Shown here one piece after another: positions 1,000 through 17,066 of a stretch of DNA of 64,000 nucleotides (the stretch's first letter is position 1; the number at the start of each line of letters is the position of its first letter). The stretch is from Nitrospirota bacterium (lineage in GTDB: Bacteria > Nitrospirota > UBA9217): positions 129,756 to 193,755 of the forward strand of contig CAWGYL010000002.1 of assembly GCA_963826885.1 (NCBI GenBank). Direction: 5' to 3'. Under the pieces are notes generated by a model that saw nothing but the letters and a program-made list of their open reading frames with translations, searched no databases and was not told where the DNA came from. Both the position numbers and the translations under genes were made by a program.

Positions 1000-3395
1000 T
1001 AGGAGGCGGGATTACTCCCGCCGTCCTCCCACACCACATACTATAACGCTCCTGTCAAGAAAAAGATTCAATTTGCTTTTATTCAATAGGATAACTTGAT
1101 CAGTATATTAAAAACGCACCTCTCTCTTTCGGCATTTACGCCGTTATCACTTTTATCGACGAGTCTCTCGCAACCAGACGAACGACATCTCTGATAGTTA
1201 TGTCACCTATGCGGCGTGCCATATGGCCGCCAAGAATACCTTATCCAGATTCTATCGTTCAAAACGAGAGGCCCTGTATTGTAGGTGACGAGGTCAACTG
1301 CCCTCAACTAACTTGAGCACGGGCTCTCCCGTCGAAATAAATTTTGCGTACACCATTATGCGGCTGCTTTTCGTTCTACCCGCTTTTCCAGTTTAAGGTA
1401 TTTCGAGTCGAAAGATTCCTTCTTTTTCATCAGCGTCCAAGCAATAATCAAGAGCTTCGCGGCGAGCTTCACCCTCATTTTCGTGGCAATGCCTTTCTCC
1501 TTCGCCCGTCCAGCAAGCTTATTCGTAAAATAGGGAATAAAGTCCTTACTCTTAATCGAGGCAATGAACGCTGCCTGGTATAACGCGCACCGCAGATCCG
1601 CCTTGCCCTGTTTGGAGATGATCGGCGTTGCCCTGTTTGACGTTCTTCCGCTTCTCTGTGCGCAAAGATCAAAACCCGCCAACCGCAAAACCTGTTTGCC
1701 GCTTGTAAAGCGGTGGGGATCGCCGATGGCTCCGAGGACCTTGGCGGATACATCCGGCCCAAACCCAGGAATGCTCAAGAGGTACGTATACTCCGGAAAC
1801 TCAAGACAGGCATTCTCAAGCTTGTCTTCAACCGCTTTGATCTCCTGCCTAACCTGTTTCAAACTATCTACTGCAATCTGAGCTTCATGGAAGGCCGCCT
1901 CTCCCATGGTGCAGCCAACGGAATTGACCGCGGTCCTCCAAATCGCTCCCACTCTGCGTTCCCGAGCCAACGTCATTTTGCCTGGTGCTACGGTACGGCA
2001 GAAATCATCGTATTCCATGCCGGCGATAGCGGAAGGATCCAGACATTCCCGCACTACCGCCAGGGTCTCTGACGATCCGTAGTACGTATCCAACTCAGGG
2101 AAATACTGTGCAAGGATATGATTGCGAATATACGCGCTTATGCCGTGTTCCCGCTTCTTCAGTCGCCGCTTGACTGCGTTTAGTACGCGCACGTTTTGAA
2201 GCGTCATCAGGGGATATTCATAAAACATGCATTTCCCCTGTGCAATGAGATCTGCGATATTAGCCGAATCCTTGTCATCGTTTTTATCCCATCGACCGTT
2301 CAGAAGTTGCCGGTTGTTCTTTACTGCCATACCGCCAACAAAAACGACCATCAGACCGCATTTGAGCAGATGCTCCGCCAGGGGCTTGTGGTAGTCTGCC
2401 GTCGGCTCGATCCCGAAAACGACTTTCGGCAGGCTGTATTGAACCTTGACACGCTCCACATGCGCATCCAGCTTTTCGAATCCCTCGATCGTGTTGTCAA
2501 AGATCACATTCCTTAAAAGCGTCTTGCCTTGCGCAGTACCAAAAAACGCACGGTGCTTCTCTTTCGCCACATCAATCCCAATGATCAAATATTCTTCCGA
2601 ACCACGAATTTCTTTCTTCAGTTGCCGAAATTGCTGAAGTCTGATATCATCAATACAGTTCATAGAAGCCTCCTGCCCTTGAATTTAGTTTCGTCATAAA
2701 CTAATTCTTAGCAGGAGGTTTCTATTTTGGATAGTCTTGAAGAAAATATTTCCTATACTTTAATGGGGAAATATAACCTCATGCTCTATCCATATATAAC
2801 ACGTACGTGCCGTTCGGCATACGGCGGTTCCTGTCTTTCCGCTCTTTCGGTGACCTTGTCGCCTCCTGTTCTATAAGCACCTGACTTTACCTCGCGGATT
2901 CCGTCCGCTACTTCCAGCCTAGGCCCTCTTGCGGGGCTTGTGCTCAGTACAGATAGAGATTCGGTCTCGAACAGTCCGACAAGTTCGGCCCTTCATCCCG
3001 TTGGTGCGGGACTAATACGGCCTCTGCTGACTTCTACCGATCCATCTCAACACCTTACGATGTCGATAGCACATGGCAGAACGGCAGACCTCCCAGGGTA
3101 AGACGCATGACCTTCATCCCATATACCCGCCGCATCTACTTCCACACCTTCCGGATGGTTATCGGGCTTTGAGTCTTTATGCCCTCTCGCCCAAGTGTGG
3201 CTGCCTCATATGCGGTTTCTGTTCGTCAGGCCGGGACTTTGCTTACAGCTTCCTTCAGATTCCGGGTCGCCCCGGACACCCTTGCTGTTCGGCTAACGGT
3301 TCCTCCCATCAAGGCCCATAAAGGACTTTCACCTTCGAGTCGCCAGTCAGTTACCAATCTGACCAGCCTGTAAAATACAGAGCGTCATGCCTGGC
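1000..3395 (-). mobile_element. IS110-family insertion sequence; ends not determinable from sequence alone. It may cover only part of this span
   Basis: The transposase gene is flanked by about 390 bp of non-coding DNA on its 3' side (965-1355) and about 730 bp of ORF-free DNA on its 5' side (2664-3395). It abuts the truncated msrA. IS110-family elements lack terminal inverted repeats, so boundaries cannot be read directly. Confidence 0.35.
1356..2663 (-). CDS. IS110-family (DEDD) transposase
   Basis: N-terminal IIGIDVAKEKH and a DKNDDKDSANIADL motif. C-terminal LLSIPGFGPDVSAKVLGAIGDPHRFTSGKQVLRLAGFDLCAQRSGRTSNRATPIISKQGKADLRCALYQAA is typical of the IS110/IS1111 C-terminal domain. RBS ggagg lies 6 nt upstream of the ATG. 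Confidence 0.85.
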   Translation of the reverse strand: MNCIDDIRLQQFRQLKKEIRGSEEYLIIGIDVAKEKHRAFFGTAQGKTLLRNVIFDNTIEGFEKLDAHVERVKVQYSLPKVVFGIEPTADYHKPLAEHLLKCGLMVVFVGGMAVKNNRQLLNGRWDKNDDKDSANIADLIAQGKCMFYEYPLMTLQNVRVLNAVKRRLKKREHGISAYIRNHILAQYFPELDTYYGSSETLAVVRECLDPSAIAGMEYDDFCRTVAPGKMTLARERRVGAIWRTAVNSVGCTMGEAAFHEAQIAVDSLKQVRQEIKAVEDKLENACLEFPEYTYLLSIPGFGPDVSAKVLGAIGDPHRFTSGKQVLRLAGFDLCAQRSGRTSNRATPIISKQGKADLRCALYQAAFIASIKSKDFIPYFTNKLAGRAKEKGIATKMRVKLAAKLLIIAWTLMKKKESFDSKYLKLEKRVERKAAA

Positions 3396-6565: not shown

Positions 6566-7156
6566 ATGAATTATGAGTCAATGATCTATTTCAATGTTTA
6601 CTTGGGTAAATTCTCTCGGTCAATTTGTCTTGACAGGGGGATACACGGAATTTATCATGGTTTCATGATCTATCCTGGATTATTGCAAACCGTTGCAAAG
6701 AGGATCACCCTGTCCAACGTGATGGGGGGCCTCGCATTCCTGCTGGTCGCAAGCCTGATGCTGTTCATCCTGTCTGACTGTTCAAAACAGGTTTCCTATC
6801 CCTCCCCAGTACAGATCGGCTCCAATATCGTCATCGATATGTCAAGCCTGGAGCTTGAGGTTCCCAAATTCTACACGTACCAGTTTCAGGACAAAAAGGT
6901 CAATTTTTTCGTTATCAAAAAGGAGGACACGCCCCTTTCCTTTCTTGACGCCTGCTCAAGCTGTTATCCCCATAAGCAGGGATACCGCTGCGAAGACAAC
7001 GCGGTTATCTGCCGTTACTGCAACGTCAGGTTGCCCATCAGTAAGCTCGAAAAAGGTATCGGGAGCTGTTATCCGATCAAAATTGAGGGCAAAATGGAGA
7101 ACGGCAAGTATATGATTGCGGTGGACACCTTGGAAAAGGCGGCGGATAAGTTTTGA
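6566..7156 (+). CDS. Membrane-anchored protein with a C-terminal 4-Cys (CxxC...CxxC) domain (DUF2318-like, attribution uncertain)
   Basis: TM segment GGLAFLLVASLMLFIL followed by FLDACSSCYPHKQGY...VICRYCNV. The true start is probably an internal Met near 6674 or 6722. Confidence 0.35.
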   Translation: MNYESMIYFNVYLGKFSRSICLDRGIHGIYHGFMIYPGLLQTVAKRITLSNVMGGLAFLLVASLMLFILSDCSKQVSYPSPVQIGSNIVIDMSSLELEVPKFYTYQFQDKKVNFFVIKKEDTPLSFLDACSSCYPHKQGYRCEDNAVICRYCNVRLPISKLEKGIGSCYPIKIEGKMENGKYMIAVDTLEKAADKF

Positions 7157-7343: not shown

Positions 7344-8519
7344 TCAGAAATGCCCTTCCCCGTTTTTTCTAGTCCTCTCGGTCCGCTTCATGCCAACAAA
7401 TTCTCCCCAGGCGGTTATTTGCCAGTTGTCTGTCCTGCTTGCCTCCGGCACCCAGGGTGGTACGGACAACTTCAAGCGAAGGGAAAGCGCATGCACGTAA
7501 GGTTCGTACATCCGCCGCAGCTCGTAAAGCCGCGGGGCCACATCCGCGTCCTTCCGGAGCTGAATACCTTCTGTCTCGAGCGCCGCGTGCATCGAAGCGA
7601 GTTCCCGCGGTGGAAGCCGGTCGATCAGCGGCTCCTCGGGCGCGACGTGTAACACCAGCGCGAGATCCACGATTGCATGGCGGGCCATGGCAAAGGTCAA
7701 TTGCGCCTGGCGCACGCATGTTCCATGAAGGTTGGTCATGACGAAGGCGCAGGTGTCCAGGATGGATGTCAGCGCCGCGAGCCACGATTGATTATCGTGC
7801 TGGGAACGGAAATACACGAGGACCGGAAAGGAGAGATGGCTTTCGAGCAATTCCGCCGACCATCGTTCCCATTCGTAGAGGAGCCGCGACAGCGATTCTG
7901 TGGCGGAGTCCTGGGATTGGCGCCGCACCATTTCAATGGCCGTCGGAGGAGAGCCAGCGCGCGCATCCAGGAGCGAGATATTGACCTCTCTTTTCGAAAA
8001 TGATTGATTGAGTGCCGGAAGGTAGCTGATTACGATGGCCAGAAAGCCGAAGCCCATGCCCGATTCGAGGACAATGAGAGCCCGTGCAACGGGAGTGTGT
8101 GGCACGATATCTCCCAGGCCGAGCGTAAAAAAAGTCGTCCCGCTGAAATAGAGGCAGGTGCCAAACGTTACGTAGTCCTCGGGTGTTTTCAAGGCGTTAC
8201 CCGGCGCCCAATAAAGGAGCGCGAAACCCGAGATCAAGACGCTGGCCCAAAACCCCAGCAGCAACGGCAGCGAAAGGGGGCCATAGTAGCTCAGGTAATT
8301 TTCCTGGCGTTTCCCACTCGAAAGCGCATGGACTAGCGCAGTCCAAAGTCGCCATGTGGTCCGATAGAAGAGACGTACGAGCCGTATACGCCTCGTCACC
8401 CGACGCGGAAAAACGACGGTTTCAAAGGCATCCGCCAGCACAACAATGATAAGGGCGATGCCCGCAATGGTTGCGAGAATCGGCACGGTTATTACTCCCC
8501 TCTTCACGCCCGCAGGCAC
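7344..8519 (-). CDS. Potassium channel protein (Ion_trans_2-type pore with a cytoplasmic C-terminal domain)
   Basis: Two TM helices flank a pore helix and the selectivity-filter-like TTFFTLGLGD (a TxGxGD variant). A long soluble C-terminal domain follows. Confidence 0.7.
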   Translation of the reverse strand: MPAGVKRGVITVPILATIAGIALIIVVLADAFETVVFPRRVTRRIRLVRLFYRTTWRLWTALVHALSSGKRQENYLSYYGPLSLPLLLGFWASVLISGFALLYWAPGNALKTPEDYVTFGTCLYFSGTTFFTLGLGDIVPHTPVARALIVLESGMGFGFLAIVISYLPALNQSFSKREVNISLLDARAGSPPTAIEMVRRQSQDSATESLSRLLYEWERWSAELLESHLSFPVLVYFRSQHDNQSWLAALTSILDTCAFVMTNLHGTCVRQAQLTFAMARHAIVDLALVLHVAPEEPLIDRLPPRELASMHAALETEGIQLRKDADVAPRLYELRRMYEPYVHALSLRLKLSVPPWVPEASRTDNWQITAWGEFVGMKRTERTRKNGEGHF

Positions 8520-9147: not shown

Positions 9148-9798
9148 ATGATCCCGCTTAAAGACATCGACCGCAGGCCCTCACGTTTTCCGGCAATCAC
9201 TACCCTGATCATCGGGTTGAATACGCTCGTTTTTCTGTTTGAATTAGTGAACGGACCAGCCTTCATCGCCCGGTGGTCGTATAGTCCGTCAGAAATCGTT
9301 GCAGGACGAAACTTGATCACCCTCCTGACCGCCATGTTTGTACATGGCGGTTGGTTACATATAATTGGCAACATGATATTTTTTTGGGCGTTCGGACCTG
9401 CGATCGAAGACACAATGGGAAGAGCGAGGTTCCTAGTCTTTTACTTATCAGGCGGACTGGTAGCCACCCTTGCACAGGTGCTCCTTAACCCTGACTCTTC
9501 AATCCCCAATCTAGGCGCAAGCGGCGCGATTGCAGCGGTCATGGGAGCATTTCTCATCACCTTTCCCCGCGACAGGATCCGCACAATTGTTTTTCTCGGA
9601 ATTTTTGTGACAATAGTCTTTATTCCGGCGATCATACTGGTAGGATTATGGTTCGTCCTTCAGTTCTTCAGCGAAGTCGGCTCACTGGCAGTGCAGCAGA
9701 CCGGTGGTGGGATAGCGTATGCAGCCCATATCGGGGGATTTGTCTTCGGCGTTGTCTTTGCTCCTTTATTTGAGTCCCATCGGCGGCGTTACAAATAA
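9148..9798 (+). CDS. Rhomboid-family intramembrane serine protease
   Basis: Six TM segments. GASGAIAAVMGA (catalytic Ser in the GxSG motif) and AHIGGFVFG (catalytic His). Confidence 0.8.
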   Translation: MIPLKDIDRRPSRFPAITTLIIGLNTLVFLFELVNGPAFIARWSYSPSEIVAGRNLITLLTAMFVHGGWLHIIGNMIFFWAFGPAIEDTMGRARFLVFYLSGGLVATLAQVLLNPDSSIPNLGASGAIAAVMGAFLITFPRDRIRTIVFLGIFVTIVFIPAIILVGLWFVLQFFSEVGSLAVQQTGGGIAYAAHIGGFVFGVVFAPLFESHRRRYK

Positions 9799-9949
9799 GC
9801 TGAAATGAGCTTATGCCTATGACCGTTATAAGGCGGTGAATTTCCTCGGTCATAGCGAGATGGATAAGAAATAAAATGCGTGTCGGATGTAAAAGGAATG
9901 CATTGTGCTTCGAAATCAACGTTGACTCGGTCGACACAGGAGGTTGAAC

Positions 9950-12900
9950 GTGACAACAGCAAATAAAACAGCATGCATCTTATGTTTTACCCTTGCTCTC
10001 ATTGTGTTTCAGACAAACCTGTATGGTTCAGAGGAAAAACCTGGGCAATCCCTTCCAGTCTACAGTCTCTCTGTTTCATTTGACTTGAAAAGTAATCTTT
10101 TGAGAGGCAGAGCGGCAATTACGCTGCCCAAAGCTGCTGATATGACAGTTTCTCCTGGTAATCTCAGGATTATATCAGTCACACTGAACGGATTGCCTGT
10201 GGATTACAGAACAAAGGACAATCTCTTCAAGGTTACCGGTACTGGGATACTCGAAATAGCGTACGAGGGGACCTTCAGGGGAGAACCAGGAAGCAATGAA
10301 AATCTTGAGAGTGCAGGCATGGTCTCAGCCGGGATGGTGAGCGAGGAAGGCATCTCACTCAACGGCGACTGGTATCCAGCAATCAACGGACTTGCCTATT
10401 ATAAGCTCACTGCTCTTGTTCCGAACAATTTCATTGCCGTATCGGAGGCGGATGAAATTGATGCGAGGGATGCCGCTTCGGGTAAAGAGTATTCTTTTGT
10501 TTTTCCTCATCCTTTAACCGGGATAGACTTTGTTGCGGGCAACTACCGCGAAGTCAAGGACACTGTCGACGGTATAGGCATTTATGCATACTTCTTTCCC
10601 GCGGATGTTTCCCTTGCAGCCAACTATATTGAACACACAAAGAAATATCTCAGGATGTATAACGAGCTCTTCGTCCCCTACCCGTACAAAAGATTCTCTG
10701 TTGTAGAAAACATCCCGCCTACAGGCCTTTCCATGCCCACCTTCACCCTCCTGGGGCGGGACATCGTCCGCCTCCCTTTTATTCTTGAAACCTCCCTGGG
10801 CCATGAGATCACCCATCAATGGTTCGGGAATTATGTGTACGCCGACTTTAAGAAGGGTAATTGGCTTGAAGCGGTCACGAGCTATCTCTCCGACCATCTC
10901 TATGAGGAACTGAAGGGCAAAGGATGGGAGTACAGAAAAAATATTCTCATCAATTTCCAGAGCTATGTCACCCCTGACAAGGATTTCCCCCTCAGAGATT
11001 TCACCGAGAGGACCGGCTTCGCCTCCATGGCGATCGGCTATGGTAAAGGGGCAATGCTCTTTCATATGCTCGAGAACCTGGTCGGAAGAGACATATTCTA
11101 TAGATCGTTACGGAGACTTATCGAGGACAATAAATTTAAACAAGCCTCGTGGGCCGATGTAGAGACTTCATTTGAGCGAGAATCAGGCAAAGACCTCGGA
11201 TGGTTTTTTACCCAGTGGCTCAACCGTAAGGGAGTGCCCTCCTTCGAAGTCCGGTACCCTGGTGCTATTATTTTAAAGGGAATCACGACCGCTTCATTCG
11301 AGTTTGTACAGAAGGGAGAGCCCTACAGAGTTGAATTGCCCGCGAAAGTTATTACTGAAAAGGGTGAAGTGAAACAGGTGCTGGCTTTGGAAAAAGAAAG
11401 GCAGTATTTTGATATTGCTGCAAAAGAGAACCCTACGGATTTAATCTTTGATTATGACTACGATATAATGAGGACGCTTGCAGACAATGAGTTTCCTCCT
11501 GTTATCGCACGGCTGCTTGGGGATGAAAAAAAGATTATCGTTTATCCTGAAAAAGAAATGGGAAAATACGCCGGATTATTAGCAATTTTCAAAGGAGAAG
11601 GTTTTAGTGCGAAAGAACAGCTTGAGGTGAATGACAAGGATATCCAGTCCTCCTCGCTCCTTATTCTGGGTTCTGAAAGCCCTGTACTTAAAAGACTGTT
11701 CGGAGCGGCCGGGGAAAGGAGCACAGGCTTTCTGCTTATCGTACGAAATAACCCCTTGAATACTTCAAAGGTTGTGGCCTATGCCCACGGAAATTCGAAG
11801 GAAGAAGTAGACCTCGCTGTAGACAAGATATTCCATTATGGGAAGTATTCGGTCCTGCGCTTTGAAAAAGGGGAAAATGTGGCAAAGGAAATTAGCAAGT
11901 CAGATCGCGGCATGGTATTCAATCTTCAGGCTTCGGTAGAGGGTATCGAGCCCGATAAATCTCTCACGCTCGATGAAATAATCGATGCTGTCAGCGATAA
12001 GCCTATTGTCCTCATCGGGGAACGACACACCAATTATGAGGACCATAAGGTGGAGCTTGCGGTTATCGCGGGTCTCCTTAAGAAAGGGAAGAAAATCGCT
12101 ATCGGGATGGAAATGTTCCAGAGGCCTTTCCAGAAGGCAATCGATGAGTATCTCGTCGGGACCATAGATGAAAGGGAATTTTTGCGAAAGACGGAATATT
12201 TCAAGAGATGGGGGTACGACTACAATAATTACCGGGAGATCATAGAGTTCGCCAAGGCGAAGGGGATCCCCCTTGTCGCGTTGAACCAGCGGTCCGAGAT
12301 CGTGGACACGGTGGCCAAAGGAGGTCTCGACGCTTTAACCCAAGAGGAAAGAAAAGAGCTCCCTCAGGAGATGGATATGTCCGATGAATCATATAAAAAG
12401 CGGTTGAGGGAGGTCTATGAAGACCACCCTGACCATATTCCATTCGAGAACTTTTATCAATCGCAGATCATTTGGGATGAGACCATGGCGCACTCTGCAG
12501 CCCGACTCCTGGAGGAGCGGCCTGACCACCATATTGTCGTGCTGGCCGGAGTTGAACATATTATGTACGGTTCGGGAATCCCAAACAGGGTTCACCGGCT
12601 TACTGGCAGAAACTATGTCACGATTATAAACGGTACCTTCGACAGGGACGTTGGCACCTATGTACTGTTTCCCAAGTCCCTCAATCCCCCTTTTACGGCT
12701 AAACTAGGGGTGATCATCCGGGAATCAGCAGGCATGGTGCAAGTCACTGATTTTTCTCCTGATAGCGTTGCATTGAAGTCAGGCCTCAACAAGGGGGACA
12801 TGATTACCTCTGTAGACGGCTGGAAGATACAGACGATAAGCGATATAAAGATCGCCCTTTTCGATAAGGAACCGGGCCAAACGGTAAACGTGAAAGTGAT

Positions 12901-12955
12901 AAGAAAAAGATTTCTGCTCGGCTCGAGGGAACTCGAATTTAACCTCTCTTTGTAA
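9950..12955 (+). CDS. Secreted multidomain protein: M1-family zinc metallopeptidase domain, TIKI/TraB/ChaN-like domain and a C-terminal PDZ domain
   Basis: Signal peptide, then HEITHQWFGN...(18 aa)...E and NWLEAVTSY, which give the M1 HExxH-x18-E gluzincin signature. The middle region IVLIGERHTNYEDHKVELAVIAGLLKKGKKIAIGMEMFQRP...HIVVLAGVEHIMYG resembles ChaN/TIKI (GExH) domains. The C-terminus GVIIRESAGMVQV...GLNKGDMITSVDGWKI is a PDZ domain. The ORF track starts at a TTG at 9944; the GTG at 9950 has better RBS spacing (aggagg). Confidence 0.75.
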   Translation: MTTANKTACILCFTLALIVFQTNLYGSEEKPGQSLPVYSLSVSFDLKSNLLRGRAAITLPKAADMTVSPGNLRIISVTLNGLPVDYRTKDNLFKVTGTGILEIAYEGTFRGEPGSNENLESAGMVSAGMVSEEGISLNGDWYPAINGLAYYKLTALVPNNFIAVSEADEIDARDAASGKEYSFVFPHPLTGIDFVAGNYREVKDTVDGIGIYAYFFPADVSLAANYIEHTKKYLRMYNELFVPYPYKRFSVVENIPPTGLSMPTFTLLGRDIVRLPFILETSLGHEITHQWFGNYVYADFKKGNWLEAVTSYLSDHLYEELKGKGWEYRKNILINFQSYVTPDKDFPLRDFTERTGFASMAIGYGKGAMLFHMLENLVGRDIFYRSLRRLIEDNKFKQASWADVETSFERESGKDLGWFFTQWLNRKGVPSFEVRYPGAIILKGITTASFEFVQKGEPYRVELPAKVITEKGEVKQVLALEKERQYFDIAAKENPTDLIFDYDYDIMRTLADNEFPPVIARLLGDEKKIIVYPEKEMGKYAGLLAIFKGEGFSAKEQLEVNDKDIQSSSLLILGSESPVLKRLFGAAGERSTGFLLIVRNNPLNTSKVVAYAHGNSKEEVDLAVDKIFHYGKYSVLRFEKGENVAKEISKSDRGMVFNLQASVEGIEPDKSLTLDEIIDAVSDKPIVLIGERHTNYEDHKVELAVIAGLLKKGKKIAIGMEMFQRPFQKAIDEYLVGTIDEREFLRKTEYFKRWGYDYNNYREIIEFAKAKGIPLVALNQRSEIVDTVAKGGLDALTQEERKELPQEMDMSDESYKKRLREVYEDHPDHIPFENFYQSQIIWDETMAHSAARLLEERPDHHIVVLAGVEHIMYGSGIPNRVHRLTGRNYVTIINGTFDRDVGTYVLFPKSLNPPFTAKLGVIIRESAGMVQVTDFSPDSVALKSGLNKGDMITSVDGWKIQTISDIKIALFDKEPGQTVNVKVIRKRFLLGSRELEFNLSL

Positions 12956-13014
12956 GGCGGCAAGCTACCAGCGACCCCGAGTTTAAGAAACGACTTGGAA
13001 TATATGTGTGTAAC

Positions 13015-13040
13015 GCCGGCAAGGCGTTTTCCGCACGGGG
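13015..13040 (+). terminator. Possible rho-independent terminator
   Basis: aacgccggcaaggcgtttt hairpin followed by a T-run, located between convergent genes. Confidence 0.35.
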
Positions 13041-13044
13041 ACTA

Positions 13045-13797
13045 TTACTTTGACCTACCCTGAGACAATTTGTTAAGGGAATTATGCAGATCCTGCAGTT
13101 CAGATATGATGGTGTCGAGATCGAATTTGTGCCAATCAAGCACTGCGGAATGCAGGGAAGACTGGGCATCGCGCAGGGCTTTGCCTCTTTCGGTGCCATC
13201 GACAGGATGATAAAGCTTCACTTTTGCATCGAGGAGGTCATTGCTTTCCCTCAGTAAAAGCAATACGGCCTTCGCTGTTTGCGGCACATAGGGGAAGACG
13301 CCCATCCGTGCATTGTGGCACCGCTCACACACGGCCGCGACGGTCTCGGGTGTTGGAATACTGGTGACCATCGACCCATGACATGTTACGCATTCGGGGC
13401 CCTTTCCCTCCGATTCAAGCCTCTTGTAATGCAGACTCTGGGTAAATTTATAGAACTCCGCCCCGTGGCACTTGCCGCAGGTTGACGGGATGTTCTTGAA
13501 GTACACCATGCTTCGAGCATCGCCCGAGCCGAAAACACCCCTATGAGCCTCCTTTTGCCCGGAAGCGTGGGGATCGCCGCCATGGCAATTGTCGCAGGTT
13601 ACTCCATGCTTCTCGTGTACCGATCCCTTCCAACTGTGGGACTTTGCACCTACGAAACTGCTGCCCAGAAGCTGGGAATGGCAAGCGACGCAGGAATTCC
13701 CTGTTTTATTTTCATCCGCACCATTCGCGGACGCGGCAAACAGGAATGCGCCGCACGCGAGAAGGGCGCAAACAAGAACCTGGTCAATCTTTGACAT
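13045..13797 (-). CDS. Pentaheme c-type cytochrome
   Basis: Five CxxCH motifs (CVACH, CDNCH, CGKCH, CVTCH, CERCH) after a signal peptide. This is the last gene of the Rieske/cyt b operon. The Met at 13797 is the likely start; the ORF track extends to 13866 and would overlap the cyt b gene. Confidence 0.7.
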   Translation of the reverse strand: MSKIDQVLVCALLACGAFLFAASANGADENKTGNSCVACHSQLLGSSFVGAKSHSWKGSVHEKHGVTCDNCHGGDPHASGQKEAHRGVFGSGDARSMVYFKNIPSTCGKCHGAEFYKFTQSLHYKRLESEGKGPECVTCHGSMVTSIPTPETVAAVCERCHNARMGVFPYVPQTAKAVLLLLRESNDLLDAKVKLYHPVDGTERGKALRDAQSSLHSAVLDWHKFDLDTIISELQDLHNSLNKLSQGRSK

Positions 13798-15037
13798 TAC
13801 CGCCTCTCTTTCTGTTGTACCAGCGCAGAAGCGTGTAGCTGATACTCCACGCCAACGCTGTTGCAAGGATTGCTGCGACCATCATCGCCTTCGCCGTGAT
13901 ATGGAGCACGTCGATGTACCCAGCAACGACCATCATGCAGAGGAAAACGATCCCCCCAATGCCTAATGAGGTCATGAAGGGCCTGTGGAGCGGATTTTCC
14001 ATATAGTGCTTCGGATCTTTTGACCGGTCGAGGAACGGGATCAATGCATACACAACGAATGTGAACGCGGGAAAGATGACGCCGCCAATGGTCTCGGGCG
14101 TGATCTTGCCTCCCAGGAAAGAAAATGACAGGTCACCCGGAACCAGTTTCAGGAAACCATACACAACGAGGAAATACCAGTCAGGTCTCATCACGGGTGT
14201 TCCTGGCGACGGCGGGCCATACGCTTCTATTGGGTTCAAGGGGATATACGTCGCCATCATCACGACTACGAACAGCAGAAACAAGAAAAACGACAGGCTG
14301 ATGACGGCCTGTTCAGGCCAGATCGGGATGCCGATGAGCCTCCTCCCCCCCTGTGCCTCCTTTCGATTTCTGTTAGACCGGGGCTCCGTGTGTTTCTGCT
14401 TGACCAGAATGAGCATATGCAGGCCGATGAGGCCGGCCAGTACTGTTGGGATCAGCATGACATGCATGAAGAAGAAGCGGGGGACTGTCCCATCCGAAGG
14501 GAAGTCGCCTGCAAAGAGAAGTCTCGATATCCAATCTCCAACCCACGGCACCGACTTTGCCATATAGTAGGCAATGGACGTAGCGGTCACCGAGAACTGG
14601 CTATAGGGTAGCAAATAGCCGGTGAATGCCGCGACCATGGCCATACCCCACAAGCTGAGCCCCACGAGCCAGTTGATCTCCCGCGGCTTTTGGTAGGACG
14701 CGGTAAAGTAGATCCTCAGGAGATGCGCGAGGATGGCAGCGATCATGATCATTGCCGACCAGTGGTGGATGCGTCTGAAAACCAGGCCCATGGGGAGCAG
14801 GTCTAATCTTACCACACTCGCATAGGCTGCCGGGACCATCGCCCCGAAGAGGGAAACCATTGTAGTCGAAGGCTCATAGAAAAATCCGAGGAAGACGCCA
14901 GTCGCGACAAGGGTAATGAAGGAGAACAACGCCGTTTCTCCGAGCAGGAACGTGGGGTGGGTCGGGAATGTCTTGCTCAGGAACTTCTCCTTGAACTTTC
15001 TGAGTTCCAGCCTTTCATCGAACCATTTGAAAACCAT
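13784..15037 (-). CDS. Cytochrome b subunit of a Rieske/cyt b (bc-type) complex, with fused b N-terminal and C-terminal parts
   Basis: 417 aa with about 8-9 TM helices and conserved His pairs in helices (RIHHWSA...HLLR; HMLILVKQKHT), matching cytochrome b/b6-PetD architecture. It lies directly downstream of the Rieske gene. Confidence 0.85.
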   Translation of the reverse strand: MVFKWFDERLELRKFKEKFLSKTFPTHPTFLLGETALFSFITLVATGVFLGFFYEPSTTMVSLFGAMVPAAYASVVRLDLLPMGLVFRRIHHWSAMIMIAAILAHLLRIYFTASYQKPREINWLVGLSLWGMAMVAAFTGYLLPYSQFSVTATSIAYYMAKSVPWVGDWISRLLFAGDFPSDGTVPRFFFMHVMLIPTVLAGLIGLHMLILVKQKHTEPRSNRNRKEAQGGRRLIGIPIWPEQAVISLSFFLFLLFVVVMMATYIPLNPIEAYGPPSPGTPVMRPDWYFLVVYGFLKLVPGDLSFSFLGGKITPETIGGVIFPAFTFVVYALIPFLDRSKDPKHYMENPLHRPFMTSLGIGGIVFLCMMVVAGYIDVLHITAKAMMVAAILATALAWSISYTLLRWYNRKRGGNVKD

Positions 15038-15055
15038 GGCAGTGCCCTCGCCTCA

Positions 15056-15670
15056 CTATACCTGCGGCCCGATTGGTCCGTTGAAATCGCTCGTAAAGGC
15101 AAGCGTTCCGTCCTGCATCACCTTCACGCCAATTTGTGCGAGCGGGATCGGTGCAGGCCCGCCCATAACCTTCGCCCCCTGAGCTGGATTGAATATGCTG
15201 TTGTGGCAGTAGCATTCCGTGAATGATGCGGTGGGCGATTCTTGGTTTGCCATCCAGGAGACAGTGCAGCCGAGATGGGTGCAAATAGCGCTGTAGGCCA
15301 CAAACCCCTGGTCCGTCAGCGAGATGTCAGTGGGTGGCATGAATGCCTTCTCCTCCAGTTTGATCAGCTGGACGAGATTCGCGGGGTTCGATGACTTGCC
15401 CGTGGGATAGGCAAGCACGGCGTCGCCCGCCTTCATCGATGAAGCCGTGATGGGAGCCCCCGCGTTGCCTCCCTGAGCATACACAAGCCCGTCACCCGGC
15501 TTTATGGTCGCTGCATAGCCTCCGCCCTTCTTTTCGGGAGCCAGCACTTTGAGTAGTGTAAAAAGAGACCCGAAGGCGCCTGCGATGGATGCAAGGAGCA
15601 TCCCGAGGGTGAACCTCCTCCGGGTGATGCCTTTCTTGCTGCCCTCGCTCCCCGCGTTCCCGTCTACCAT
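15056..15670 (-). CDS. Rieske [2Fe-2S] iron-sulfur protein with a Tat signal
   Basis: Twin-arginine motif RRRFTLG. CTHLGC...CYCHNS is the CxH...CxxH Rieske cluster-binding box pair. Confidence 0.85.
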   Translation of the reverse strand: MVDGNAGSEGSKKGITRRRFTLGMLLASIAGAFGSLFTLLKVLAPEKKGGGYAATIKPGDGLVYAQGGNAGAPITASSMKAGDAVLAYPTGKSSNPANLVQLIKLEEKAFMPPTDISLTDQGFVAYSAICTHLGCTVSWMANQESPTASFTECYCHNSIFNPAQGAKVMGGPAPIPLAQIGVKVMQDGTLAFTSDFNGPIGPQV

Positions 15671-15927
15671 AGCAGCTCCTCCTCGCGGTCCTCCGATACC
15701 TCCCTGAAGGGAACAAAATAGCGCGCAAAGAGAACGATCTCAATGCCTGCGATCAGGAACTCGAAGGCGAGCAGTGTGCCCCAGAGGTAGTCACTTCCCT
15801 GGCCGGATATCAGGAAATAGGTGAACGCGGTGCCTGCAACGAGAAGCAGGATTGAAAGGACCAGCACCGCTATCATGGCGGCCTTTGGATATGCAGGCCT
15901 CTTCTCCTGTATGATCTCAAAGCTCAT
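15664..15927 (-). CDS. Small two-TM membrane protein, putative accessory subunit of the complex
   Basis: Starting at MSFEIIQ it encodes two hydrophobic helices. Its start overlaps the stop of the upstream cytochrome gene, suggesting translational coupling. Function unknown. Confidence 0.4.
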   Translation of the reverse strand: MSFEIIQEKRPAYPKAAMIAVLVLSILLLVAGTAFTYFLISGQGSDYLWGTLLAFEFLIAGIEIVLFARYFVPFREVSEDREEELLW

Positions 15928-15928
15928 A

Positions 15929-16660
15929 TTATCCCCTCCGTTCCAGTGCGAGGTACACGAGATAGCCGATGCCGAACAAGACAAGCACCGCGCCGAATGC
16001 GATAAATCCTATCTGGAAGGCATCGAGTTCCTCGGGAAATTCGGGTATGAACGGCGGTTTCTTGCCGACTGTTTTCGCCTGGGCGATCTTGATCCGTATT
16101 CCCGATAGCGCATTCACCGTTGATTCGGTCACATCCATCGGATCGATCTGATCGAACCCCGCCGTATCCTTGTGGCAACTTTCACAAACCTTGGGGACCT
16201 CTGGTATGGCATTTCGGTGTGCTTGGTGGCAAGTAACGCAGGATGGCCCGCCTTTATTTTCAAGATAGGCCTTGCCCATTATGCTCTTTGCGTACCGGTC
16301 GACGGAAGTATTATGGCACTGGCTGCACAGGGCAAACAGTTTTTTGCCGGATGGCTTACCTATAAAGCCCTGGGATATGGACATTGCTTGTGACATTTTT
16401 TCCCCAAATTCATTACCGGTGAAATGTTTGATATTCTGCACGTCCACGTCCGGATTTCCCCCGTGACAAAGATCGCACGTTATGCGATTTCGCTGATGGA
16501 TTGAACCTTGCCATTCCTTTACTGGTCTGCCGAGCGCAGCATCCATAAATTCGTGGCACAGTACGCAAGCCGAAGGTTTCAGCTCAGCGCGCCCGCTCGC
16601 CCCGAACAGTAGGAAAGCTGCTGCACAGCACAGCGCAAATGCACGGCTTGTTATCTTCAT
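15929..16660 (-). CDS. Membrane-anchored pentaheme c-type cytochrome
   Basis: Signal peptide, then five CxxCH motifs (CVLCH, CDLCH, CSQCH, CVTCH, CESCH) and a C-terminal TM helix (FIAFGAVLVLFGIGYLVYLAL). The likely start is MKITSRAF at 16660. Confidence 0.7.
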   Translation of the reverse strand: MKITSRAFALCCAAAFLLFGASGRAELKPSACVLCHEFMDAALGRPVKEWQGSIHQRNRITCDLCHGGNPDVDVQNIKHFTGNEFGEKMSQAMSISQGFIGKPSGKKLFALCSQCHNTSVDRYAKSIMGKAYLENKGGPSCVTCHQAHRNAIPEVPKVCESCHKDTAGFDQIDPMDVTESTVNALSGIRIKIAQAKTVGKKPPFIPEFPEELDAFQIGFIAFGAVLVLFGIGYLVYLALERRG

Positions 16661-17066
16661 ACGTTCGCTTCCCGAATTAGTATTGCATCTTTTTCCCCGA
16701 TTGAAAATCACCTCGCCCTGCAGCTGTCTTCAACCAAAGTGGGCAGGTCGCACAAGCAAGGATGCTATCCATGAAGTCAAGATAACGAATGAGAGGGCCG
16801 TGGCAAAAAGATGGCGACGTCAGGTGCTCTTGCCGTCCACTAATCAACGCACACTGCTTCTTGCTACCATCCAAGTAGTTAAGAACTCCGGTTTTGATCT
16901 CCCCTATCGTTTTCTCCGACAGTGTGCCGAACTTTGCCTGAACAACAAATTTTGCGAACCCCTGCACCTGCGCTATGCGCTGTTACCTCTCCTTCTCCAA
17001 ATCGTCGGCTTCCCTTCCAGCCCCGACAACTCGACCGCAGAGCACTTCTCGATGCTTGAAGGTGTA

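Follow-up and report, generated by a model that had tools for sequence, protein, structure and literature searches.

A widespread, unstudied family of exported proteins joining M1-like, ChaN/TIKI-superfamily and PDZ modules, represented by a putative periplasmic hydrolase of a Nitrospirota bacterium

ChaN (Cj0177 of Campylobacter jejuni, PDB 2G5G, Pfam PF04187) is a single-domain lipoprotein of approximately 270 amino acid residues, which forms a dimer with two cofacial haems and whose gene adjoins that of an iron-uptake receptor. A second group of proteins, the ChaN(DUF399)-PDZ family (e.g. DVU_3254, Q726B1), uncharacterised, in which a ChaN domain is followed by an HtrA-like PDZ domain, was classed as a non-protease 'haem-binding uptake' family (Muley et al., 2019). 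Here we describe a gene at positions 9950..12955 (+ strand) of a 64,000-nucleotide stretch of DNA from a Nitrospirota bacterium (assembly GCA_963826885.1, contig CAWGYL010000002.1, positions 129,756 to 193,755; the whole stretch is hereafter called the window), whose product of 1001 residues contains the same C-terminal pair of ChaN and PDZ domains, preceded by an M1-like peptidase module. Every module comes from a known family and the architecture is already present in databases under generic names; the combination is unstudied.

In comparison with ChaN, the window protein has no lipobox and carries M1, alpha/beta and PDZ modules in addition, and its gene has no iron-uptake neighbours. In turn, the DUF399-PDZ family as listed by Muley et al. 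(2019), as well as P0227, a stand-alone exported ChaN-PDZ protein of 439 residues that is 60% identical to residues 649–1000 of the window protein, lack the N-terminal part of approximately 640 residues (M1 domains I–III, a linker and a BcsB-like domain). Since such a stand-alone protein exists, the C-terminal ChaN-PDZ pair is a unit of its own. The M61 glycyl aminopeptidase-PDZ proteins (4FGM from Idiomarina, IL1258, and 8J9D from Xanthomonas) share with the window protein, and with HtrA, Ctp and RseP, the design logic of a peptidase plus a PDZ domain, but they are devoid of a ChaN/TIKI module; no match to Pfam M61 was found in the window protein, whose catalytic domain scores as M1. The M1 aminopeptidases that we compared (tricorn-interacting factor F3, PepN, PSA, ERAP1, LTA4H and the two-domain M1dr, 6A8Z) differ from the window protein in several respects, as the latter has G-x-x-x-P-T in place of the GAMEN motif, a spacer of 17 instead of 18 residues between HExxH and the zinc-site glutamate, other domains instead of the helical domain IV, and a zinc site that was lost in 8 of 105 diverse full-length members of the family (aligned, 29–56% identity), the set on which all conservation counts below are based. 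Among the TIKI-superfamily hydrolases (TIKI1/2, TraB/PrgY, the erythromycin esterases (Ere) EreC and BcR135/136, and RRSP), in contrast, the likeness is one of superfamily: the sequence family of the window domain is ChaN PF04187, neither TraB/TIKI nor Ere, and the minor lobe of Ere and the N-lobe of RRSP are absent.

With residues numbered throughout from the GTG start codon, we identified three Pfam domains, all exceeding Pfam's cut-offs: Peptidase_M1 (PF01433) at residues 284–423 (E-value 3.5e-14, 53 bits against a cut-off of 27.7), Cofac_haem_bdg (PF04187, ChaN) at residues 678–881, where the full-length model is matched (2.2e-63), and PDZ_2 at residues 918–986 (1.6e-10). An earlier note on this DNA, made from the letters alone, had called precisely these domains, and was correct in all three cases, also in its assignment of the middle region to ChaN/TIKI; the motifs that it quoted, HEITH (residues 285–289), E307, GERH (690–693) and GVEH (867–870), do exist. 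Its description as a three-module protein, however, has to be revised, as an AlphaFold2 model (built with an alignment of 119 sequences; mean predicted local distance difference test (pLDDT) 88.2, predicted template modelling score (pTM) 0.83) contains six modules after the signal peptide, with M1 domain III and a BcsB-like domain filling residues 431–660. The order along the modelled chain is a signal helix, disorder, an all-beta domain, a thermolysin-like helical domain, a beta-sandwich, a linker, two alpha/beta domains and a small beta-rich domain.

The N-terminus is a Sec-type signal peptide (residues 1–26, ...QTNLYG/SEE, positions 9950..10027), the sole hydrophobic segment of the protein, and the model places a helix here, followed by a disordered stretch (residues 17–33). 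The only two cysteine residues, 9 and 12, are both located within this hydrophobic segment, and a lipobox is absent from the window protein and from 101 of the 105 relatives, the other four having a loose lipobox-like match. Because of the single N-terminal hydrophobic segment and the absence of a lipobox, we predict a Sec-exported, soluble, periplasmic and cysteine-free protein, which agrees with the earlier description as secreted. The possibility of a lipoprotein, implied by the name used at NCBI, was rejected for lack of a lipobox; the label is inherited from ChaN.

After the signal peptide, all on the + strand, follow the M1 domain I, an N-terminal all-beta domain (residues 35–215, positions 10052..10594), the thermolysin-like catalytic domain (residues 217–425, positions 10598..11224), which was assigned by Pfam Peptidase_M1 and by Foldseek (E-value ~1e-27 against M1 aminopeptidases), and domain III, a six-stranded beta-sandwich (residues 431–500, positions 11240..11449). 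Thus, both the N-terminal beta domain and the catalytic fold of M1 enzymes are present. A linker with the pattern DYDxMRxLxxxExPP (residues 501–518, positions 11450..11503) shows the densest conservation of any short segment that lies outside the active sites (Asp501 and Glu514 are invariant in 105/105 and Arg508 is conserved in at least 95% of the members), and may serve as a hinge or plug. It is followed by a flavodoxin-like (BcsB-like) alpha/beta domain without a Pfam family (residues 519–660, positions 11504..11929), by the alpha/beta domain of the ChaN/TIKI superfamily (residues 674–895, positions 11969..12634), which has the ChaN fold as well as the profile match, and by an HtrA-type PDZ domain (residues 915–1001, positions 12692..12952). 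The carboxylate-binding loop of the latter, KLGV (residues 918–921), keeps the Phi-G-Phi pattern, conserved in the family, so that a PDZ fold with such a loop is joined to a hydrolase-type domain in an exported protein.

The highest conservation was observed in the ChaN/TIKI domain, where 12.2% of the positions are conserved in at least 95% of the members, against 6.2% in the M1 catalytic domain and 0–2% in the other domains. Glu691, His693, His699, Glu721, Met722, Trp754, Asn779, His826, Asp843, Met846, Gly867, His870 and Arg880 are identical in 105/105 members. These include the GExH...E...GxxH (2His/2Glu) set of the superfamily (Glu691, His693, Glu721 and His870), whose first three residues are encoded, together with the additional invariant His699, at positions 12017..12112 (GERH onwards), the rest of the invariant site (His826, WDETM at residues 842–846, GVEH with His870, and Arg880) being encoded at positions 12425..12589. 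In RRSP, a member of the TIKI family, the 2His/2Glu residues (Glu3900, His3902, Glu3930 and His4030) are essential for endopeptidase activity, and match the His-Glu chemistry of the erythromycin esterases (PMC6254334). The spacing of the window protein, ExH followed by 27 intervening residues and E, equals that of RRSP Glu3900/His3902/Glu3930, and the distal G-x-x-H is also present. Considered beside Arg4001, the conserved basic residue adjoining the catalytic site of RRSP, and by sequence counts only, the candidate basic residues are Arg880 (105/105) and Arg/Lys762 (93/105). ChaN itself keeps GEKH...E...GSYH, and since a haem-binding protein has this motif too, GExH alone would not separate a hydrolase from a haem binder; the pattern that the earlier note had pointed out as common to ChaN and TIKI is present, with its glutamate and histidine invariant, but does not by itself discriminate. 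The TraB/PrgY/TIKI profile PF01963 has no match in the window protein, and matched 1 of 49 divergent relatives (E-value 7e-5), and the kinship to that family is at superfamily level only.

In the M1 module, the zinc site, read directly from the sequence, is formed by HEITH (residues 285–289) and Glu307 (positions 10802..10870). The M1 motif HEXXH-X18-E is thus present but with a spacer of 17 residues (W-x-E-G versus W-L-N-E-G). Tyr364 (GYGKG, positions 11039..11041) aligns with the tyrosine of SYGKG in F3, the M1 transition-state tyrosine. Most members keep these residues (His285 99/105, Glu286 99/105, His289 98/105, Glu307 100/105 and Tyr364 100/105), the whole set being intact in 97/105 and degenerate in 8/105 (e.g. 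RDSDQ, MNSKY and RGGSC). In M1 aminopeptidases, the glutamate of GXMEN binds the free alpha-amino group of the substrate, and the helical domain IV caps the active site. In a HMMER alignment to F3, the GAMEN position of the window protein reads GLSMP (residues 259–263, positions 10724..10738), with a proline in place of the glutamate, in line with the earlier remark that no obvious GAMEN motif is present, and across the family the pattern is G-[YFL]-[SGA]-[MLF]-P-T, with proline at the glutamate site in 91/105 members and glutamate in none (0/105). In the AlphaFold2 model, a helical (ARM/HEAT-like) domain IV is absent after domain III, the alpha/beta, ChaN and PDZ domains following instead. 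Since both the GAMEN glutamate and the capping domain IV are missing, the module is M1-like but probably not a canonical aminopeptidase, and an endopeptidase-like activity regulated through the PDZ domain, as first suggested in the earlier note, would be plausible.

Many homologues are annotated by JGI as aminopeptidase N, which would imply that the M1 module acts as an ordinary exopeptidase, with the C-terminal domains in an accessory role. The presence of HExxH, the glutamate and the tyrosine, and the agreement of the fold with M1 aminopeptidases, are what this annotation would predict. We nevertheless consider it very improbable, given the conserved proline at the GAMEN glutamate and the absence of domain IV, and because the scores against the NCBIfam pepN equivalogs are far under their cut-offs (40 bits versus 591 and 21 bits versus 718). 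The annotation is also at odds with the distribution of losses: the eight members with a degenerate zinc site, each still 977–1033 residues long, fall into at least five separate clades of a neighbour-joining tree, a crude one, so that at least five losses is an estimate, whereas the ChaN site was never lost. Because of this difference, it is the ChaN/TIKI module that appears to form the core without which the protein cannot do, and the emphasis that the earlier note had placed on the M1 module was misplaced.

Building on the gene, export signal, domain folds, residue conservation and distribution that we observed directly, we infer a catalytic activity, a type of substrate and a cooperation between sites, and propose, with moderate confidence, that the protein works in the periplasm as a PDZ-guided hydrolase, which acts on peptides or unfolded proteins and has two hydrolytic sites. 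The first would be the ChaN/TIKI domain, with the Ere/TIKI/RRSP-type residues Glu691, His693, Glu721 and His870, joined by His699, His826, Asp843 and Arg880. The second would be the zinc-dependent M1 module, with HExxH...E...Y in most members, acting otherwise than as a canonical aminopeptidase, and serving as a binding scaffold only in the lineages in which the zinc site has decayed. The PDZ domain would capture the C-termini of substrates, as in HtrA, Ctp, RseP and the M61 peptidases; 88% of the classified microbial PDZ proteins are proteases (PMC6411480). The model is based on the 2His/2Glu chemistry of RRSP, on the pairing of PDZ domains with proteases and on the pattern of conservation.

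Several points weigh against this proposal. The invariant residues are no proof of hydrolysis, since ChaN keeps the same motifs. To our knowledge, PF04187 has no member with a measured activity, and ChaN, the only studied member that we know of, binds haem. The loss of the GAMEN glutamate may leave room for another mode of recognition of the N-terminus. In domain I, 94/105 members keep Glu166 on the 'SNM' strand; as the alignment of this domain to solved M1 enzymes is of low confidence, a second N-terminus-anchoring glutamate was not used as evidence. Finally, in a neighbourhood test in which open reading frames were called and clustered in 80 related loci plus the window (81 loci), no uptake genes were found among the recurring neighbours, and no conserved neighbours point to a substrate or pathway.

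The main rival to a hydrolase is haem or iron handling, in which the ChaN-like domain would bind haem for periplasmic salvage or delivery, without hydrolysis; in one version, the M1 module would trim haem-peptides or damaged c-type cytochromes, the ChaN domain would capture the haem and the PDZ domain would recruit the protein substrate. Its basis is the kinship to ChaN, as haem-bound ChaN (2G5G) is the closest solved structure and has the same conserved motifs; a family profile was required to reach 2G5G, a single-sequence phmmer search of the PDB with the ChaN part having returned nothing meaningful. Other members of the TIKI superfamily follow in the structural comparison, with match scores of 16.0 for HopBA1, 15.3 and 14.3 for BcR135/136, 14.1 for EreC, 12.4 for PMT and 12.1 for RRSP, while the M61-PDZ peptidases reach 16–17 and the PDZ domains of HtrA, Deg, CtpA and RseP 11–13. 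The haem iron of ChaN is reportedly ligated by a tyrosine at the dimer interface, which we did not use as evidence. In the present family, the near-invariant tyrosines of the ChaN domain, Tyr750 (99/105) and Tyr761 (97/105), are replaced by phenylalanine or tryptophan in some members, whereas the strictly invariant residues are histidine, glutamate, aspartate and arginine, as in TIKI/Ere sites. Haem handling would also suit the hosts, which are rich in multihaem cytochromes (Thermodesulfovibrionia, Desulfobacterota, Candidatus Methanoperedens and Campylobacterota), and the position of the window gene, which adjoins genes for multihaem cytochromes and for cytochrome b and Rieske proteins. However, this neighbourhood is not kept even at 83% identity, nor over the 80 loci, neither a TonB receptor nor an ABC haem transporter nor an Escherichia coli-type Fur box lies nearby, and the lipobox of ChaN is missing; we regard haem handling as unlikely.

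A more specific form of the hydrolase proposal is that the PF04187 domain is a true TIKI/Ere-type hydrolase that shares one chamber with the GAMEN-less M1 site and a PDZ gate, which we hold to be unlikely. Such a two-site machine might cut internally at the TIKI-like site and then trim the products at the zinc site, or might degrade haem-peptides from c-type cytochromes, with the haem being captured.

The alpha/beta domain between the linker and the ChaN domain resembles best a BcsB domain and the N-terminal domains of glycoside hydrolases, which, together with the dispensability of the M1 zinc site in 8/105 members, would agree with a non-peptide esterase similar to Ere or BcR135, acting on an envelope or exopolysaccharide ester, the M1 and BcsB-like modules being mainly scaffolds. 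This appears quite improbable to us, as the PDZ domain, and an M1 module found intact in 92% of the members, point to peptide ligands and no polysaccharide genes are conserved nearby.

The architecture is not rare, as the word 'unusual' in the earlier note had suggested. In a collection of ~5.8 billion clustered proteins, more than 120 clusters (90% identity) contain proteins of 950–1030 residues with the same three Pfam domains, at 54–100% identity. A HMMER search of 1.84 billion representatives gave 1865 matches at E-values ≤1e-30, the top 150 of which keep the long architecture down to 31% identity, and the full-length architecture is found in at least 150 clusters at 50% identity. In a scan of one genome per species, which returned 555 related stretches, the best 80 of the 555 are all full length, some on contigs of 1–3 Mb, so that at least 80 species genomes share the architecture; these 80 loci are mostly from Nitrospirota/Thermodesulfovibrionales, and also from Candidatus Methanoperedens, Deltaproteobacteria/Thermodesulfobacteriota, Spirochaetota and Schekmanbacteria. 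Overall, full-length proteins were identified in Nitrospirota, Desulfobacterota, Campylobacterota, Aquificota and Candidatus Methanoperedens, and cultured members of Persephonella, in the Aquificota (e.g. WP_029521910.1), and of Nitrosophilus, in the Campylobacterota (e.g. WP_200762463.1), supply RefSeq homologues. Anaerobes and thermophiles commonly carry this architecture. Of the 49 members that diverge most (28–40% identity), Pfam detects ChaN and PDZ in 49/49 and Peptidase_M1 in 46/49.

Two side observations concern this distribution. The full-length homologues of three loci (L012, L013 and L014; 55–56% identity) are on contigs binned as Candidatus Methanoperedens or as an uncultured archaeon, which suggests a transfer between Nitrospirota-like bacteria and an archaeal lineage, or mis-binning. 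In addition, in a protein of 604 residues (P0209) the M1 catalytic domain leads straight into ChaN-PDZ, domain III and the BcsB-like domain being absent; this protein may be N-terminally truncated.

The family is large, well conserved and completely unstudied: in the searchable literature we found no paper describing the M1-ChaN-PDZ combination and no characterised protein with this architecture, as the earlier note had supposed. Its database names ('aminopeptidase N' and 'uncharacterized iron-regulated protein' at JGI, 'ChaN family lipoprotein' at NCBI) are contradictory and partly wrong. The family is well suited to a clean test of the question whether ChaN-type domains hydrolyse, as TIKI, Ere and RRSP do, or bind haem, as ChaN does, since the ChaN domain is here fused to two modules that normally handle peptides. 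As the M1 zinc site has decayed repeatedly while the ChaN site next to it stayed intact, the family is also a natural experiment on which module is essential. If the more specific, two-site form of the hydrolase proposal is true, re-annotation as peptidases would be due for thousands of proteins now called 'ChaN family lipoprotein' or 'iron-regulated protein', and TIKI-type proteolysis would gain an abundant bacterial representative beyond toxins and pheromone systems. The payoff would be a better annotation of envelope proteolysis, or of haem handling, in difficult-to-culture anaerobes, and the orthologues in the cultured Persephonella and Nitrosophilus make experiments feasible.

The gene is a single long open reading frame on the + strand of the window, which ends at 12955 and, in the list of open reading frames, starts at 9944 (TTG) or 9950 (GTG). 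The GTG is the more likely start, because the Shine-Dalgarno sequence AGGAGG (positions 9938..9943) abuts the TTG at 9944 and is located 6 nucleotides before the GTG, and because the database homologues have 1001 residues and begin at that GTG. From there, the gene comprises 1001 codons and a TAA stop codon. A protein in the public collection (P0001) has 1001 residues and is 100% identical to the window protein, and 1001 residues is also the length of most homologues; the single reading frame of approximately 1000 codons given in the earlier note thus corresponds to one real gene. That note had also raised the possibility of an assembly fusion of two genes, with a junction around residue 600, and an artefact of assembly or gene calling that joined two neighbouring genes would be an alternative to all functional readings. 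The reading frame is unbroken in the window, the same protein of 950–1030 residues recurs in more than 120 clusters that are independent of one another and in at least 80 genomes, with some copies on multi-Mb contigs (3.08 Mb in the case of a relative with 83% identity) and some from RefSeq isolates, and the junction is modelled as folded domains with a pLDDT of ~90. The junction between the modules is ancient and conserved, and the fusion, for which no supporting evidence was found, was ruled out by these conservation data, with a probability that we set at practically nil.

In the window, the gene stands alone, 146 nucleotides 3' of a rhomboid protease gene (9148-9798, +), which is preceded by genes for a two-transmembrane-type K+ channel (Ion_trans_2; 7344-8519, -) and an FtrD-like membrane iron-sulfur protein (6566-7156, +). 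On its other side it is convergent with a cluster (13045-16711, -) of genes coding for a cytochrome b (13784-15037), a Rieske protein (15056-15670) and two multihaem c-type cytochromes, one at 13045-13866 and the other at 15929-16711, a set that resembles an alternative complex of the bc type having multihaem subunits. Neither side is kept among the relatives: the rhomboid gene is directly upstream only in close relatives, and the cytochrome cluster is already absent beside the 83%-identical homologue and is not conserved across the 80 loci. In the 81 loci of the neighbourhood test no conserved gene partner was identified, the commonest neighbour cluster occurring in 14/81, and the recurring neighbours are housekeeping genes (LolD-like ATPase, HflX, OGG and thiamine genes). 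As there is no conserved partner and the cytochrome cluster is not kept, the context is uninformative on function, and an operon-based functional inference, with no neighbour conserved, was dropped. With up to 3 mismatches allowed, no match to the E. coli Fur-box consensus was found near the gene, a test that has little power in this phylum. A scan for promoters and terminators in the surroundings found no more of them than shuffled sequence contains.

Three further features of the surroundings were observed. In the locus of the 83%-identical homologue (L081), an IS605 OrfB/TnpB gene (Cas12f-like; 12598-14073, -) is found ~1.6 kb downstream, in the place that the cytochrome genes occupy in the window, and its position hints at a rearrangement at the spot of the cytochrome cluster. 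The gap of 146 nucleotides between the rhomboid gene and the M1-ChaN-PDZ gene contains a perfect inverted repeat of 9 nucleotides (CTATGACCG / CGGTCATAG, with a 21-nucleotide spacer; 9817-9855, +), a candidate hairpin that could end the rhomboid transcript, or an operator. Finally, group II intron RNA domains were detected at 2988-3276 (-), with Rfam RF02001 (147 bits) and RF01998 (67 bits) above the gathering score, which points to a predicted mobile intron ~7 kb upstream of the gene.

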